From NCBI GenBank assembly GCA_038150265.1, contig JAYOTF010000030.1:1-40708 (forward strand): a DNA stretch of 40,708 nt, read 5' to 3'. A program made the translations under genes and the position numbers. This DNA is from Deltaproteobacteria bacterium. Lineage in GTDB: Bacteria > SAR324 > NAC60-12. Under the pieces are notes generated by a model. It was given only the letters and a program-made list of their open reading frames with translations, made no database searches and had not been told where the DNA came from. This document shows, one piece after another, positions 654 through 40,511 of this stretch; the first letter of the stretch is position 1, and every line of letters begins with the position of its first letter.

Positions 654-803
654 ATGTTTGGAATTCAAGGACTGCTCGGATACCTGCTCCTGGTTGTGGT
701 GCTCGTCACCTGCCTGGTCGTGATCGGGTACGAGGCACTGGTGGTCCAGCAGGAACAAGCCACCAACTACTACACTGTTGAAGCTCCGGAAAACGCCCGC
801 TGA
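654..803 (+). CDS. Small single-TM protein, DUF4006-like (49 aa, not in the ORF track)
   Basis: ATG 654 to TGA 803 reads MFGIQGLLGYLLLVVVLVTCLVVIGYEALVVQQEQATNYYTVEAPENAR. Starts 9 nt after ccoP. Pattern and position match DUF4006 as I recall it from Campylobacterota. Confidence 0.75.
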   Translation: MFGIQGLLGYLLLVVVLVTCLVVIGYEALVVQQEQATNYYTVEAPENAR

Positions 804-819
804 GGGCCTCCTCCTGAAA

Positions 820-839
820 CCAGGGCGGCAACGCCCTGG
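820..839 (+). terminator. Hairpin closing the cco structural operon
   Basis: CCAGGGCG-GCAA-CGCCCTGG: perfect 8-bp stem with a GNRA loop. No U-tract. Confidence 0.5.
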
Positions 840-853
840 CGACCGACTTGCCT

Positions 854-2374
854 ATGCCTCCTTCGGAACTGGTTCACGCCTTGATGTCTCCGGGGGCGTA
901 CCCGCACCCCGTTCAGTCTCCCATCCGCCTCATCCAAACCCATGTGGCGTGGGTCTTTCTGACGGGCTCTCATGCCTACAAGCTCAAGAAGCCTGTCGAC
1001 TTCGGCTTCCTCGATTTTTCCACTCTGGCGCAACGCAAGGTTGCGTGTGACGACGAACTTCGGCTCAATCGGCACTACGCCCCATCCATTTACCAGGCGG
1101 TGCTTCCAGTCGGACGGGAAGCCGGCACCCTGCGGCTCCTCACCGAAGATTCGGAAGCCCTTCCGGAAGACTACGTTGTCCAGATGACGGAGTTTCCCCA
1201 GTCCAGCCTCTTTCGGGTGATGCTCGAAGAGCAGGCCCTGGAAGCCCGACACCTCGAAGACCTCGGAAGGCGCCTGGCCCGCTGGCAAGAAACCGCTCCC
1301 ACTGACGAAGAAGTCGCTTCCTACGGATCGGCCTCTGCGCTGCGCTCACTTGCTCAAGACAACTTCACCGACCTGGCCCCTCACGCCGGAGACGTCTTTT
1401 CGGTGGACCTGCTCCAGCGGGTTGAAGCCCATCAGTTTTCCTTCCTCGATGCCCACCAGTCCACCCTCAGGGAACGCGGCACACAGGGACGAATCCGGGA
1501 GTGCCACGGTGACCTTCACCTCAATAACGTCTGCTGGCTGGAAGGCGAGTCGGTTCCCTTCGACTGCATCGAGTTCAGTCGCTCCATCCGCAGCACCGAT
1601 GTGCAGTACGATGCTGCCTTCATGGTCTGTGACCTGCTGATCCGGAACCGGACCGACCTTGCCTTTGCCTTTTACAACACCTGGCTGGAGCACTCCGGAG
1701 ACTTCACGGGGGCAGCGCTGCTGACCTTTTACATCAGCCTGCGAGCGGGGGTGCGGGCCAAGATCCACTCCTACTCCATTCACAACGACACCCTGAGCCC
1801 TTCGGAACGTCAAAGCGCCCGGAAGCACACCCGCGCCTTCCTTGACCTCGCAGGGGCGCTGGCGGATCCTCCGGAGCCTGTTGCCTTTGTGGTCTCCGGA
1901 CTCTCGGGGTCTGGCAAGAGCACGGTTGGCCGCTGGCTGGCTCAGGACCACGGAGCCATTCACCTGCGCTCCGATGCCATCCGCAAGCACCTGGCAGGGC
2001 AGTCGCCACTGACTCCCGGAACACCGGCGCTGTATGCGGAGGCTCACACTCAACGGACCTATACCGCGCTGATCGACTACGCTCGGGGCATTCTGGACTC
2101 CGGGCAGTCGGTGGTTCTCGACGCCACCTTTCTCCGCCCGGAACAGCGGGCCGCCCTGGAGGCCCTCCAGCCCTTCCCTGTCCGTGTGCTGACCTGTGAG
2201 GCGCCCGAGGCCCTGTTACGGGAGCGGTTGCAGCAACGCACCCAAGACGCCTCAGATGCCACCCTCGCGGTCCTGGAACAGCAGCAGCACACCTGGACCC
2301 CCTGGGAAGGAGCGTGGCCTCTTGAGACGTCCCAAAACTGGGAGCCTCAGATCAAGACGTGGGTGACTGAGTAA
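854..2374 (+). CDS. Bifunctional aminoglycoside-phosphotransferase-like / AAA_33 P-loop kinase protein
   Basis: QTHVAWVFL, AYKLKKPVDFGFLDFST, ECHGDLHLNN and FDCIEF in the N-domain. GLSGSGKST P-loop, RSDAIRK, VLDATF and SDA in the C-domain. Confidence 0.85.
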   Translation: MPPSELVHALMSPGAYPHPVQSPIRLIQTHVAWVFLTGSHAYKLKKPVDFGFLDFSTLAQRKVACDDELRLNRHYAPSIYQAVLPVGREAGTLRLLTEDSEALPEDYVVQMTEFPQSSLFRVMLEEQALEARHLEDLGRRLARWQETAPTDEEVASYGSASALRSLAQDNFTDLAPHAGDVFSVDLLQRVEAHQFSFLDAHQSTLRERGTQGRIRECHGDLHLNNVCWLEGESVPFDCIEFSRSIRSTDVQYDAAFMVCDLLIRNRTDLAFAFYNTWLEHSGDFTGAALLTFYISLRAGVRAKIHSYSIHNDTLSPSERQSARKHTRAFLDLAGALADPPEPVAFVVSGLSGSGKSTVGRWLAQDHGAIHLRSDAIRKHLAGQSPLTPGTPALYAEAHTQRTYTALIDYARGILDSGQSVVLDATFLRPEQRAALEALQPFPVRVLTCEAPEALLRERLQQRTQDASDATLAVLEQQQHTWTPWEGAWPLETSQNWEPQIKTWVTE

Positions 2375-2406
2375 AATTACGGATGTTTCTTCTGTGACGG
2401 ATTATT

Positions 2407-2424
2407 AAAATATTCGCATATTTT
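2407..2424. promoter_or_regulatory. Inverted repeat (candidate operator) upstream of the persulfide dioxygenase
   Basis: AAAATAT-TCGC-ATATTTT in an AT-rich intergenic region. RBS AGGAG precedes ATG 2471. Confidence 0.45.
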
Positions 2425-38342: not shown

Positions 38343-38375
38343 CATGCTAAGGGGGAGCGTTGGCTCTCATACCGC

Positions 38376-38465
38376 GGAGAGATGGCCGAGTGGTCGAAGG
38401 CGGTAGACTCGAAATCTATTAGGGGTGCAAGCTCCTCGGGGGTTCGAATCCCTCTCTCTCCGCCA
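38376..38465 (+). tRNA. tRNA-Ser (anticodon CGA)
   Basis: GGAGAGA/TCTCTCC acceptor stem, G discriminator, encoded CCA, GTAGA-CT-CGA-AA-TCTAT anticodon arm, long variable arm, GGTTCGAATCC T-arm. Confidence 0.96.
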
Positions 38466-38470
38466 CCAGC

Positions 38471-38499
38471 TCCGTTAAGGCCCTGATCCTCTTAACGGA
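38471..38499 (+). terminator. Hairpin downstream of tRNA-Ser
   Basis: TCCGTTAAG-N11-CTTAACGGA, 9-bp perfect stem. Confidence 0.5.
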
Positions 38500-38639
38500 A
38501 TTCAGTCCCCCTCAATATCCTCCCCATTGAGCACCTCCCCAGCTCTTCCCGCTTTGACTGAGCCGCCACCTCGGTTGCACCTCCACGCATGAAAACCAGG
38601 GCCGTGGGCTGCAGCGTGAGCCCCTGCCCCTGGAGCCCA

Positions 38640-40511
38640 TCAAGCGGTTGGGGCCAATAACGCCTGCACCTGCTCCACACAGGCTTCCACCGTCAGGTTG
38701 TGTGTGGAAAGCCGCAGCTCAGCCTGCTCCGAAGGCTCATAGGGGCTGTCGATCCCGGTAAAGTGGGGCAGCTCGCCGCGCCGGGCTTTGGCATAGAGGC
38801 CCTTGACGTCCCGGCGTTCACACTCCTCCAGCGGAGTATCCACAAAGATCTCCAGGAACTCCCCCTCTTCAAACAACTCCCGGGTCCACTGACGCTCCGA
38901 GCGGTAGGGAGAGATGAAGCTGACGAGCACGATCAGCCCGGCGTCCACCATCAGCTTGGCCACCTCACTGATCCGCCGCAGGTTTTCGACTCGGTCGGCT
39001 TCCGTAAAGCCGAGGTCTCGGTTCAGGCCATGCCGGACGTTATCGCCATCCAGCAGGTAGGTGTGCCTGCCTTCGCCGTGGAGCTTCTTTTCCAGCATCG
39101 TGGCAATGGTGGACTTCCCGGAGCCGGAAAGCCCCGTGAACCAGAGGCACTTCGGAGTTTGATGCTTGAGGATCGCCCGCTGAGCCTTCCCCACCTCCAC
39201 GGCCTGCCAATGAATGTTGGTGGAGCGTCGCAGGGCAAATTCCAGCAAACCCGCCCCCACGGTGGCGTGGGTGAGCTTGTCGATCAGGATGAAGCCACCC
39301 AGCGTCCGATTCTTCAGGTACGGCTCGAAGACCACCGGCTGGCTGGTGGAAAGGGTCACAACCGCAATGTCGTTGAGCCCGAGCTGTTTGGCGGCCAGGT
39401 GCGCTCCGGTGTTGATGTCCTCCCGGAACTTCAGGTCGGTCAGGGTCGCGGTGACTTCCTGGGTGTGGAGCTTGAACAGGTAGGGGCGTCCCGGAACCAG
39501 TGGTGCCTCACTCATCCACAGCAGATGCGCCTGAAACTGATCCGCAACCTCACAGGGCTGGTCAGCCGCGACCAGAACGTTGCCTCGGCTGACATCGACC
39601 TCGTCCTCAAGCGTGAGGGTGACGGACTGTCCCTGAGAGGCTTCAGCATGGGGCTCTGTCCAGAGATCAATGCTCTTGACCCGGGAGGTCTGCCCGGAAG
39701 GAAGCACCCGAATCGCATCTCCCTGACGGACGGTTCCGGACGCCACGCGTCCGCAGAAGCCTCGGTAGTCCAGGTTGGGGCGATTGACCCACTGGACCGG
39801 CATCCGGAAGGGGGCATCGGTTTCCGCAGCATGAACATCCAGGGTGTCCAGGTGATCAAACAGGGTTGGACCGTGGTACCACGGCATCTGGTCGCTGGGG
39901 CGCATGACGTTTTCCCCGTAGACGGCAGACAGGGGAATGGCCTGGAGCGTTGCCAACTCGGAGTCTGCGGCAAAGGCCTGGTAGTCCTGGACAATGCCTT
40001 GAAAGGTTGCCTCGTCGTACCCGACCAGGTCCATCTTGTTGATGGCAAGGACGATGTGCCGGATGCCCATCAGGGTGACGATGCGGTGGTGCCGTCGCGT
40101 CTGCGTGAGGACCCCTTTGCGGGCATCAATGAGCAAAATGGCCAACTGGGCGGTCGAAGCGCCGGTTGCCATGTTCCGGGTGTACTGCTCGTGCCCCGGC
40201 GTGTCGGCGACCATGTAGCGGCGTCGATCGGTTGCAAAAAAACGATACGCCACGTCAATGGTGATGCCCTGCTCCCGCTCAGCCTGGAGGCCATCCACGA
40301 GCAGCGCAAAGTCCAGCTTCTCTCCCTGAGTTCCATACTGCCTGGAGTCACTCTCCAGAGCCTGCAGTTGGTCATCAAACAGGTTCTTCGACTCATGGAG
40401 CAGGCACCCAATGAGGGTGCTCTTCCCGTCATCCACACTCCCGCAGGTGATGAAGCGCAGGGTTTCTTTTTCTTGTTGCTCCCGAAGGAACTCGCTAATT
40501 GAGGTGGTCAT
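38640..40511 (-). CDS. cysNC: Bifunctional sulfate adenylyltransferase subunit 1 / APS kinase (CysN-CysC, NodQ-like)
   Basis: TCGSVDDGKSTLIG, EREQGITIDVAYR, DTPGHEQYTRNM, NKMD. C-terminal WFTGLSGSGKST, LDGDNVRHGLN, RDVKGLY, FTGIDSPYE. Confidence 0.95.
   Translation of the reverse strand: MTTSISEFLREQQEKETLRFITCGSVDDGKSTLIGCLLHESKNLFDDQLQALESDSRQYGTQGEKLDFALLVDGLQAEREQGITIDVAYRFFATDRRRYMVADTPGHEQYTRNMATGASTAQLAILLIDARKGVLTQTRRHHRIVTLMGIRHIVLAINKMDLVGYDEATFQGIVQDYQAFAADSELATLQAIPLSAVYGENVMRPSDQMPWYHGPTLFDHLDTLDVHAAETDAPFRMPVQWVNRPNLDYRGFCGRVASGTVRQGDAIRVLPSGQTSRVKSIDLWTEPHAEASQGQSVTLTLEDEVDVSRGNVLVAADQPCEVADQFQAHLLWMSEAPLVPGRPYLFKLHTQEVTATLTDLKFREDINTGAHLAAKQLGLNDIAVVTLSTSQPVVFEPYLKNRTLGGFILIDKLTHATVGAGLLEFALRRSTNIHWQAVEVGKAQRAILKHQTPKCLWFTGLSGSGKSTIATMLEKKLHGEGRHTYLLDGDNVRHGLNRDLGFTEADRVENLRRISEVAKLMVDAGLIVLVSFISPYRSERQWTRELFEEGEFLEIFVDTPLEECERRDVKGLYAKARRGELPHFTGIDSPYEPSEQAELRLSTHNLTVEACVEQVQALLAPTA

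Follow-up and report, generated by a model that had tools for sequence, protein, structure and literature searches.

In enterobacteria, the GATC/Dam/SeqA/MutH system is built on a dense short palindrome (∼1 per 200–350 bp), one of whose readers, SeqA, needs two sites on one helix face; GATC itself is not strongly over-represented genome-wide, and we know of no half-turn dialect for this system. The words known as USS in Pasteurellaceae and DUS in Neisseriaceae are 9–12 bases long, non-palindromic and present at ∼1 per kb. They are over-represented genome-wide in all reading frames, form lineage 'dialects' and are possibly spread by drive rather than by per-site function; to our knowledge, no helical phasing has been described between their copies. 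Two-site (type IIE/IIF) restriction enzymes of the CCGG family respond to the helical phase between sites that lie close together, and TCCGGA is the target of Kpn2I, BspEI and AccIII. The recognition site does not appear in the main text of the Kpn2I paper (PMC6237814). In cyanobacteria, the highly iterated palindrome HIP1 is GCGATCGC, and alternate HIPs are GGCGCC, GCsGC and rCCGGy (Elhai, 2015, PMC4390886; Xu et al., 2018, PMC5861425; Rodriguez-Cruz et al., 2026, PMC13756078).

Abundance of TCCGGA and its independence from coding

The window analyzed here (the whole stretch of 40,708 bp) contains 119 TCCGGA sites, the first at 785–790 and the last at 39803–39808, dispersed at 2.9 per kb over genes of both strands and intergenic DNA. 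In 100 dinucleotide-preserving shuffles of the window, 15.3±3.9 copies were obtained (maximum 26), and none of the shuffles reached 119. An earlier note on this DNA had counted ∼115–120 sites by eye against ∼14 predicted by composition, and had found the same-composition palindrome ACCGGT to be scarce; both statements agree with the exact counts (7 ACCGGT against 8.5 expected). The source genome (3.39 Mb) has 9,711 sites, or 1 per 349 bp, with 2.4–3.8 per kb in all 46 contigs longer than 20 kb, although all genomes used are metagenome bins and composition-based binning could drop site-poor atypical contigs, overstating this evenness. The enrichment is therefore not limited to the window, a possibility that the note had raised against itself.

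TCCGGA ranked first by observed/expected ratio among the hexamers of the source genome and was the only one affected among the 64 hexamer palindromes. The ratio was 8.67 against composition and 7.57, 3.95, 2.39 and 1.22 under Markov models of first to fourth order, respectively. Thus, an excess remains under the fourth-order model that the note had proposed as a check, but it is small; this model is, however, built from TCCGG and CCGGA, which are themselves 3.1-fold enriched. At scales of at least 1 kb the sites were Poisson-like (variance-to-mean ratio 1.04–1.18), and neither dense clusters nor empty 6-kb windows were found in the source genome, which fits many equivalent, individually dispensable sites. 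The longest site-free stretch of the window (27962–30064; 2.1 kb) has a normal G+C content, holds an HbpS-like gene (28471–29250, reverse strand) and gave no match to Rfam families. Gaps this long fit the near-exponential gap distribution of the genome (27 gaps of 2–3 kb observed, 27 expected).

According to the gene set of a crude in-house caller (2,642 genes covering 86.7% of bases, with at least one real window gene missed), 8,584 of the 9,711 sites are located in called genes, with 2,023, 2,336 and 4,225 in the three codon phases. All three phases occur within the helicase–nuclease gene at 9153–12698 (forward strand; UvrD-helicase and PD-(D/E)XK nuclease by Pfam domains), as had been claimed for this gene under the name recB: recomputed from the start codon, the phases are xxT-CCG-GAx at 9620, xTC-CGG-Axx at 9841 and TCC-GGA at 10359. 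Shuffling of the called genes yielded 2,066±40 sites when synonymous (observed excess 4.15-fold), 1,257 with codon permutation (6.83-fold) and 6,623±30 when dicodons were preserved (1.30-fold, z ∼66; 1.30- and 1.51-fold in the two phases that are free to vary), so that the excess did not vanish under the dicodon-preserving shuffle named in the note. Moreover, 1,166 intergenic stretches of 20–300 bp contained 256 TCCGGA against 34.6 expected (7.4-fold) and only 24–46 copies of each of seven same-composition palindromes; an intergenic example in the window is the site at 785–790, between a cytochrome-c gene ending at 644 and the next gene starting at 848. Approximately 34–49% of protein-permissive positions were occupied by TCCGGA, namely 2,021 of 6,000 Ser-Gly, 2,336 of 6,243 [FLIV]-Arg-[A..] and 4,225 of 8,612 x-Pro-[Asp/Glu] contexts. 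On the basis of the phases, shuffles, intergenic DNA and occupancy, the proposal that TCCGGA is a HIP-like palindrome, highly iterated in a non-cyanobacterial genome, is upheld, and its excess reflects neither a dipeptide nor a codon effect.

Helical phasing, lineage dialects and site turnover

The pair-distance spectrum of TCCGGA in the source genome peaked at 10.45 bp with a normalised power of 27.5, whereas none of 39 control hexamers exceeded 8.1, and those not overlapping TCCGGA did not exceed 4.2. The relative amplitude was 25% at 30–130 bp, 14% at 130–230 bp and ∼7% at 230–430 bp, with a phase of ∼0 out to 430 bp; a power of 7.6 with shifted phase was obtained at 430–530 bp, and the signal was essentially lost past ∼530 bp. 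The period was seen in all three distance-mod-3 classes. Permissive positions as a whole had a power of only 0.6, compared with 21.8 for the occupied ones, and permutation of occupancy among permissive positions (300 replicates) gave a maximum of 5.7 against 21.2 observed. Thus, the 10.45-bp period is a choice at the DNA level. Whole-turn pairs can be found in the window as well: two sites at 8613–8628 lie 10 bp, or one turn, apart (45 and 22 pairs genome-wide at 9 and 10 bp), sites 16360 and 16401 (16360–16406) show the favoured four-turn spacing of 41 bp (50 and 49 pairs at 41 and 42 bp against 27.8 expected), sites 25409 and 25461 (25409–25466) are separated by 52 bp, or five turns (46 and 40 pairs at 51 and 52 bp), and sites 12215 and 12278 (12215–12283) by 63 bp, or six turns (65 pairs against 27.8 expected). 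Pairs at 11–28 bp were scarce in the genome (255 against 500 expected; 218 against 421±17 in the occupancy permutation). No co-periodicity with AA/TT, AAA/TTT, GC or GGCC was detected in the source genome, which argues against a general curvature code.

Similar periods were observed in relatives. In G002 (420 kb), the top period was 10.55–10.6 bp (power 11.4), with a phase that drifts from ∼0 at 10.45 bp to −1.0 rad when taken at the fitted peak of 10.6 bp; G019 (420 kb) had a period of 10.45 bp (power 12.1, phase −2.7 rad) and G013 (786 kb) one of 10.5 bp (power 9.0, phase −3.09 rad, and ∼π in each half taken separately). We also counted pairs over whole genomes in whole-turn (40–43 plus 50–53 bp) and half-turn windows (35–38 plus 45–48 bp), in which the reversed control word gave 0–10 pairs per window. 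Whole-turn versus half-turn pairs numbered 298 versus 167 in the source genome, 174 versus 118 in G002 and 107 versus 158 in G001. In genus g11, the ratio exceeded 1 in every one of the 13 genomes that had 20 or more pairs (nine at p<0.001; pooled, 1,058 versus 509), although phasing was clear in this genus only from such whole-genome counts; a sample of 340 kb had yielded a weak signal, with a power of 5.2 that did not make it the top period. Three genomes of genus g12 gave 34 versus 125, 50 versus 173 and 4 versus 65. The preferred phase is thus lineage-dependent, with whole turns in g11, the source genome and G002 and half turns in g12 and G001, related genomes being non-independent observations both here and in the census that follows.

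Among 88 species genomes of the phylum, TCCGGA ranged from 36 to 0.01 times the reversed control word, and many relatives of the source genome are rich in it as well. The trait was maintained over a G+C content of 40–61%; six genomes of family f7 had merely 15–267 copies per ∼3-Mb genome, and families f4 and f7 also include enriched genomes. In a 407-kb alignment of the source genome with its sister species G002 (82% identity), 551 sites were common, 651 were present only in the source genome and 418 only in G002, showing that individual sites turn over while density stays. Conservation of TCCGGA was 0.458 compared with 0.334 over all hexamers, and 0.51 compared with 0.14–0.40 for its 18 one-letter neighbors; with rank 118 of 916 hexamers, it is only moderately above background. 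All kinds of one-letter neighbor exchange with TCCGGA, beyond C/T transitions. These pairwise data are unpolarised and cannot discriminate between selection and a drive through biased repair or uptake.

A putative multivalent reader and its alternatives

The helically phased spacing points to a protein that grips several TCCGGA copies. We give a probability of roughly one half to the reading that TCCGGA is the recognition word of a putative multivalent DNA-binding protein or complex touching at least two copies at once. Such a reader, bound to the palindrome as a dimer, might organise the nucleoid or act by bridging, wrapping or capturing DNA. It would read the helix face, placing neighbors within ∼300–400 bp at preferred torsional phases, and lineages would have come to differ in this preference by half a turn. 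The 34–49% occupancy of permissive positions could come from weak selection acting on thousands of sites that can stand in for one another, or from a drive that creates sites and is coupled to this protein. Of the mechanisms suggested in the earlier note, the chromosome-binding factor is therefore favored by the phasing, but no candidate gene for the reader emerged from our searches of the source genome: SeqA and MutH were not found, and folds of the Bse634I/Cfr10I and NgoMIV types had no match, the latter two blanks carrying no weight because their controls matched nowhere.

A DNA-uptake word, preferred by a competence receptor (perhaps as pairs) and spread by recombination, would likewise lead to sites in all frames, with a Poisson-like scatter over long distances and turnover from one species to the next, and a receptor requiring two phased sites would also give phasing and dialects. 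We consider it unlikely. ComEC (PF03772) is present in the source genome and in 40 of 41 relatives, but it is equally common in the non-enriched ones; a hexamer offers only ∼ten-fold discrimination of self DNA, and known uptake sequences have 9–12 bases and are non-palindromic. On the other hand, HIP1 is reported to promote transformation, and a correlation of HIP1 with genes of type IV secretion or uptake is also reported (10.1101/2024.09.10.611283; PMC13756078). Quite unlikely for TCCGGA is Elhai's model of HIP1, in which a solitary methyltransferase would mark the sites and methylation-directed repair, similar to very-short-patch or mismatch repair, would convert near-sites. Cyanobacterial HIP1 and alternate HIPs do co-occur with cognate methyltransferases (PMC4390886), and the source genome has one conserved orphan-like SPPY methylase (contig C51), with motif I (DPFMGGGT) ∼190 residues ahead of motif IV (TSPPY) and N4-cytosine methyltransferases as best solved relatives, at motif level only; its gene is vertically inherited, identity following kinship. 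This protein was the only, and weak, match to PF02086 in the source genome, in which PF02384 had none. The solitary methyltransferase envisaged in the note thus has a candidate, but its distribution does not track the trait, which weakens the idea: orthologs were found in the non-enriched genera g2 and g9 and family f2 but in none of 24 genomes of families f3–f7, enriched f4 and f7 genomes included. Furthermore, the three g12 species have C, N or R in place of the serine of motif IV, and 6 of 12 g11 orthologs have an in-frame stop. The very-short-patch route is not supported. Neither C5-methyltransferase (PF00145) nor Vsr (PF03852) was found in the source genome, and genera g1, g11 and g12, with 24 genomes together, yielded no intact C5 enzyme (fragments in G002, G012 and G058; a stop-interrupted remnant in G050); the one-mismatch neighbors proposed for a depletion test, TTCGGA and TCTGGA, were not depleted, nor were others; exchanges occur at all positions, and a single-site repair bias leaves helical phasing unexplained.

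Intrinsic DNA mechanics, in which a flexible or bent TCCGGA in phased placement would tune curvature or supercoil geometry with no dedicated protein, agrees with the 10.45-bp period, with phase coherence fading over ∼300–400 bp and with the occurrence of both in-phase (curving) and anti-phase (straight) regimes. It is nevertheless very unlikely, given that no co-periodicity exists with A-tracts or other curvature-code dinucleotide signals, that one of 64 hexamer palindromes is affected, and that sister lineages nearly eliminate TCCGGA, a signature of sequence-specific proteins rather than of DNA mechanics. The 8,584 genic sites could instead reflect UCCGGA in transcripts of either strand, selected through an RNA-binding factor or RNA pairing, and the scarcity of pairs 11–28 nt apart could mean avoidance of 6-bp hairpins. 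However, this appears highly improbable, as enrichment is almost equal in short intergenic DNA, pairs at 9–10 nt (the best hairpins) are not depleted, and neither the non-integer 10.45-nt period nor the half-turn shift has an RNA rationale. An origin of the excess as a side effect of codon bias, dicodon bias or context-dependent mutation is barely credible. The fourth-order ratio of just 1.22 and the 77% of sites regained by the dicodon-preserving shuffle would fit it, but both models inherit the signal via enriched sub-words. The excess in every codon phase and in non-coding DNA, the 4.15-fold excess over the synonymous shuffle and the retention of the trait from 40 to 61% G+C oppose it, and codon usage cannot create the helical phasing among permissive positions seen in the occupancy permutation; we regard this origin as largely refuted.

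Comparison with known systems

As in restriction-site avoidance, a sequence-specific protein would shape the count of one palindrome (15–267 copies in each of six f7 genomes), but in the source genome TCCGGA has accumulated rather than been avoided, and a search there for a cognate restriction enzyme or methylase found none, the controls for the CCGG fold matching nowhere. Compared with the GATC system, the source genome lacks SeqA, MutH and, save for the weak match of the C51 protein, a Dam-type enzyme. With USS and DUS, TCCGGA shares the genome-wide excess of a short word, its presence in all frames and lineage dialects. Similar to HIP1, it is a short G+C-rich palindrome that is hyper-abundant genome-wide, within and between genes, clade-specific and conserved somewhat over background. 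It is, however, another word in another phylum, and 'TCCGGA' is absent from the available text of PMC4390886. TCCGGA is a hexamer at ∼9-fold over composition, whereas HIP1 is reported as an octamer at 15–300-fold; unlike HIP1, it could not be linked to a cognate methyltransferase and shows extreme avoidance in sister lineages. Finally, the periodicity reported for HIP1 is 10–90 kb, whereas that of TCCGGA is 10.45 bp with a lineage-specific phase.

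Over-representation of TCCGGA and its independence from coding

The earlier note had estimated by eye some 115-120 copies of the palindrome TCCGGA in the window, and direct counting gave 119, compared with 15.3 ± 3.9 in dinucleotide-preserving shuffles (none of 100 reached 119). The palindrome ACCGGT, claimed to be scarce, occurred 7 times (8.5 expected), and the codon-phase examples taken from a gene called recB were arithmetically right, this gene (9153-12698) encoding a UvrD-helicase/PD-(D/E)XK nuclease. In the whole source genome (labeled SAR324, hereafter G000; 3,393,712 bases, 87 contigs, 61.3% G+C, 97.8% complete), 9,711 copies were found, that is, one per 349 bp, and TCCGGA topped all hexamers in over-representation. 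The signal is not limited to the window, as each of the 46 contigs above 20 kb holds 2.4-3.8 copies per kb. The observed count divided by the expected one (O/E) was 8.67 relative to composition; with Markov models it fell to 7.57, 3.95 and 2.39 (orders 1-3) and to 1.22 (order 4). It should be noted that the order-4 model is built from the pentamers TCCGG and CCGGA, each of which is itself 3.1-fold enriched, and therefore absorbs the signal rather than accounting for it. The proposed genome signature of the highly iterated palindrome type was thus borne out as a strong genome-wide excess beyond composition and low-order Markov expectation. The flanks of the sites were near-random (T at position -1, 0.32) and almost uninformative, so that the unit is the hexamer itself; a longer motif or a repeat element was rejected on the basis of these flanks together with the all-different spacers of close pairs.

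Some other features of G000 and the window were recorded. Hexamer palindromes containing CTAG (CCTAGG, ACTAGT, GCTAGC and TCTAGA) were almost missing from the genome (O/E 0.03-0.06), and TGATCA and CTGCAG were approximately threefold enriched, the former being high in several relatives too. A 2.1-kb stretch of the window with normal G+C content (27962-30064) contains no TCCGGA. The gene caller overlooked an HbpS-like gene located inside it on the minus strand (28471-29250), and the ∼950 bp at 29251-30205 showed no recognized gene and no Rfam family. The window also encodes a Tricorn-type protease of 1,097 amino acids (14392-17685) and a TPR protein of 1,127 amino acids (23957-27340); both lie among ordinary housekeeping genes, such as those for cbb3-oxidase maturation (FixG/H/I), ScpB, MoeA and CysN/C.

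The relation of the sites to coding was analyzed with the gene set of our own crude caller (2,642 genes, 86.7% of bases, with at least the HbpS-like gene missed). Sites within genes fall in all three codon phases (2,023, 2,336 and 4,225), which agrees with the previous argument against a dipeptide effect. The word was carried by 2,021 of 6,000 permissive Ser-Gly contexts, 2,336 of 6,243 permissive [FLIV]-Arg-[codon starting with A] contexts and 4,225 of 8,612 permissive x-Pro-[Asp/Glu] contexts. The 8,584 copies observed in genes were compared with 2,066 ± 40 after shuffling of synonymous codons, 1,257 after codon permutation and 6,623 ± 30 after the dicodon-preserving shuffle suggested earlier as a check, under which the excess persisted. 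In 1,166 short intergenic stretches, 256 copies were observed (34.6 expected), and seven palindromes of the same composition occurred 24-46 times each.

Distribution in the phylum and candidate enzymes

Among 80 named loci gathered via a metabolic gene of the window, five showed at least fourfold enrichment of TCCGGA: one from an 'uncultured bacterium' bin (protein 93% identical), three from marine bins labeled 'Proteobacteria', two of which have just 40-44% G+C, and one from a 'SAR324 cluster' bin. The other 75 loci ranged from 0- to 2.6-fold, all except four being below 1.5-fold. We then used a pattern search over all 88 species genomes of the phylum collection, with the reversed word AGGCCT as built-in control. 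The TCCGGA/AGGCCT ratio reached 3 or more in 37 genomes and 10 or more in 13; in 11 genomes it stayed at 0.33 or below, and in 5 at 0.1 or below. Ratios of 3.9-5.9 were found in the source genus (g1), 14-30 in genus g12, 3-8 in genera g4, g6 and g3, and 3.9-32 in 15 of 18 genomes of genus g11, the other three (51-57% complete) showing ∼1.6. Nine genomes of genus g2 gave 0.84-1.2 and the sister family f2 gave 0.13-2.0. The single 1.6-Mb genome of family f4 has 357 TCCGGA versus 10 AGGCCT. Within family f7, genera g33 and g35-g37 had ratios of 2.4-8.2, and genera g38 and g40-g43 had 0.01-0.14, with 15-267 sites per ∼3-Mb genome. In samples of g11 (43.5% G+C), g12 (56%) and g1 (60%), composition-based O/E was 7.5-8.5 and TCCGGA was the top hexamer in each. 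One hexamer varies 3,400-fold within one phylum, a practical warning that binning by composition, methods relying on restriction and models of codon usage will all be distorted in these genomes.

The avoiding f7 genomes (G081 and G083-G087, ∼3 Mb each) contain 15-267 TCCGGA versus 1,435-1,882 AGGCCT, and a full-length C5-methyltransferase was present in five of the six. These enzymes are mutually just 26-34% identical and have unrelated neighbors, and no shared restriction system behind the depletion was found. The extreme avoidance in sister lineages points to TCCGGA-specific proteins at work in the phylum. Three depleted genomes of the sister family (G029 and the single-contig, 1.6-1.7-Mb G027 and G032; ratios 0.13-0.25) carry 21-26 PF01555 methylase genes each.

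Methylation-linked very-short-patch (VSP) repair, the route proposed in the earlier note, was not supported in the enriched genomes. No C5-methyltransferase (PF00145) was found in G000 and no intact one in 24 genomes of g1, g11 and g12; Vsr endonuclease (PF03852) was likewise absent from the 97.8% complete G000, and the one-mismatch neighbors were not depleted there (O/E 2.57 for TCTGGA/TCCAGA and 1.34 for TTCGGA/TCCGAA). Neither a type I/IIG N6 methylase nor a homolog of SeqA (PF03925) or MutH (PF02976) could be identified in G000, the controls for the latter two being positive in E. coli; PF02086 matched only the contig C51 protein described below. Generic searches for a CCGG-family nuclease fold gave no match, and neither did their controls.

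Two PF01555-type proteins were identified in G000. Contig C45 (L001:35-3159) encodes a 469-amino-acid reverse transcriptase of the retron St85 type, directly followed by a beta-class SPPY methylase (258 amino acids) and a 311-amino-acid protein that matched no known family. The reverse transcriptase and methylase genes look like a defense operon, and a comparable PF01555 match was seen in G001 only, by a search that cannot separate orthologs from paralogs; this methylase was set aside as the writer of TCCGGA. The second protein, on contig C51 (L002:2-1387; orthologs L144-L154), is orphan-like. Its motif I lies ∼190 residues before the TSPPY motif IV, an order permuted relative to PF01555; its solved relatives, by a motif-level match only, are N4-cytosine methyltransferases, and a protein atlas search returned only generic 'DNA methyltransferase family' clusters. 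The G002 ortholog (730 amino acids) has a long N-terminal run of charged EDRPRR-type repeats. As a candidate writer or reader of TCCGGA, this protein was traced through the 88 genomes. It is present in 51, all of families f1 and f2 and non-enriched genera among them, and was not found in any of 24 genomes from f3-f7, though f4 and f7 include enriched genomes. In the three g12 species, C, N or R takes the place of the motif-IV serine, and 6 of 12 g11 orthologs are interrupted by a stop codon in frame (TGA in five, TAA in one), which may reflect recoding, a split gene or decay. With this mismatched phyletic pattern, variable motif and stops, the C51 methylase does not track the trait and is an unlikely writer or reader of the word.

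Helical phasing and site turnover

Distances between sites in G000 peaked near 9, 19, 31, 41.5, 52, 62.5, 72, 83 and 93 bp, and pairs 11-28 bp apart were scarce (255 versus 500 expected). The distance spectrum had a peak at 3.0 bp (power 39.9), which is weak compared with 100-170 in ordinary coding hexamers, and another at 10.45 bp (power 27.5). Among 39 abundant control hexamers the maximum at the helical period was 8.1; the three above 5 overlap TCCGGA and the rest did not exceed 4.2. The 10.45-bp amplitude was 25% at 30-130 bp, fell to 14% and then to ∼7%, and was essentially gone beyond ∼530 bp. The phase was approximately zero up to 430 bp, a power of 7.6 with shifted phase remained at 430-530 bp, and the period was present in all three distance-modulo-3 classes. 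No co-periodicity with AA/TT, AAA/TTT, GC, GGCC, CG or TA was observed in G000, which tells against a general curvature code.

At the helical period, all permissive positions together gave a power of 0.6, compared with 21.8 for the occupied ones. In 300 replicates that redistributed occupancy over the permissive positions within each contig and phase, the maximum power was 5.7 versus 21.2 observed, and 421 ± 17 close pairs were expected versus 218 observed. Since the permissive positions are aperiodic and permutation does not reproduce the signal, the phasing must be a DNA-level choice. Over distances of 1 kb and more the sites were Poisson-like (variance-to-mean 1.04-1.18), and their density dropped to half solely around start codons. 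Operator-like clusters or site-free islands were not found (no six or more sites in 120 bp, no 6-kb window with three or fewer), and selection against long gaps, as in strand discrimination, was rejected because the gap tail matches the exponential expectation.

The preferred phase was then compared among relatives. In g1, G002 (420 kb, 1,010 sites) had a top period of 10.55-10.6 bp (power 11.4) with phase near 0, namely -0.04 rad at 10.45 bp, shifting to -1.0 rad when read at its fitted peak of 10.6 bp. In g12, G013 (786 kb, 1,811 sites) peaked at 10.5 bp (power 9.0, phase -3.09 rad, ∼π in each half) and G019 (420 kb, 633 sites) at 10.45 bp (power 12.1, phase -2.7 rad), with a pooled g12 power of 15.2. 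In 340 kb sampled from G018 (g11) the signal was weak, with a power of 5.2 and without the helical period at the top. Whole-genome pair counts compared distances of whole turns (40-43 plus 50-53 bp) with those of half turns (35-38 plus 45-48 bp). Whole turns prevailed in G000 (298 versus 167), G002 (174 versus 118), G018 (149 versus 41), genus g4 (125 versus 80) and pooled g11 (1,058 versus 509); all 13 g11 genomes with at least 20 pairs had a whole/half ratio above 1 (nine at P<0.001), five others having too few pairs for comparison. Half turns prevailed in G001 of g1 (107 whole versus 158 half, P=0.002), genus g10 (12 versus 25) and, in g12, G023 (34 versus 125), G013 (50 versus 173) and G019 (4 versus 65). 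Related genomes are not independent, and these P-values describe single genomes only. The AGGCCT control gave 0-10 pairs per distance window. The period is common to the lineages, and the preferred phase shifts by half a turn between them, even inside genus g1.

Individual sites turn over. In 407 kb aligned between G002 and G000 (82% identity), 551 sites were common to both, 651 were found in G000 only and 418 in G002 only; thus over half differ. TCCGGA ranked 118th of 916 hexamers in conservation (0.458, the figure over all hexamers being 0.334) and, on a symmetrized count, reached 0.51 versus 0.14-0.40 for the 18 one-letter neighbors. Exchanges between the word and its neighbors involved every position and every substitution type, and the neighbors were undepleted in the genome. 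Single sites are therefore dispensable, but their density is held. Selection and a site-creating drive are indistinguishable with these unpolarized substitutions.

A proposed multi-site reader and comparison with known systems

A 10.45-bp phase among synonymous choices indicates that processes acting on one site at a time are insufficient: codon bias, context-dependent mutation or VSP-type repair could not, as the sole cause, yield a helical phase relation. Such a relation means that something must sense at least two copies on the double helix. Of the two interpretations offered earlier, a chromosome-binding factor is therefore favored by the phasing, and methylation-linked VSP repair lost ground with the lack of its genes and of neighbor depletion. 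With the copies phased to the helix and the phase differing between genera, a physical reader of several sites becomes the leading hypothesis, and we assign a probability of roughly one half to a multivalent TCCGGA-binding protein, for which no candidate gene was found. Such a reader might organize the nucleoid, bridge or wrap DNA, read methylation or capture DNA for uptake, and the half-turn shift between lineages would, in the simplest view, reflect a change in its geometry.

A bolder proposal, which we consider unlikely, is that the arrays form a chromosome-wide docking code with a heritable, fast-evolving dialect by which self and close-relative DNA are told apart. If so, the dialect (whole turns in g11, G000 and G002, half turns in g12 and G001) would mirror the geometry of the putative reader and allow discrimination of own from kin DNA, for example, in uptake, recombination, compaction or defense; the lineages purging TCCGGA would then place the word at the center of a long-running self/non-self system.

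Among known systems, DNA uptake sequences call for competence genes; G000 has ComEC, and so have 40 of 41 relatives, non-enriched ones included. Readers of methylated palindromes of the SeqA/MutH type and the Dcm/Vsr type of VSP repair both differ from the present case, G000 lacking the former homologs as well as the C5-methyltransferase, Vsr and C-to-T neighbor depletion of the latter. In literature on palindromes, methylomes, over-representation and SAR324 metaepigenomics we found no report of a TCCGGA signature; TCCGGA, CCGG and SAR324 were all missing from the main text of marine methylome papers, whose supplements may list motifs. Helix-scale phasing of a genome-wide palindrome was not found in the literature either, including the accessible parts of papers on HIP1, the cyanobacterial highly iterated palindrome.

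TCCGGA comes closest to the cyanobacterial highly iterated palindromes, which have been known for thirty years and, to our knowledge, have no agreed function. It resembles HIP1 in lying within genes, in every frame, as well as in intergenic DNA. HIP1 sites are conserved between genomes above background and show a 10-90-kb chromosomal periodicity, according to Xu et al. (2018, PMC5861425). HIP words are paired with a word-specific methyltransferase in Elhai (2015, PMC4390886), where TCCGGA is not mentioned. The two PF01555-type enzymes of G000 are one retron-linked and one conserved and orphan-like. TCCGGA is a second, independent case of highly iterated palindromes, in an abundant uncultured group. 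Beyond its abundance and phasing, the analysis yielded a survey of the whole phylum that includes both extremes, the lack of intact C5-methylases throughout the enriched clade, a test of the C51 methylase by its phyletic pattern, a permutation test of the phasing and the lineage-specific phase.
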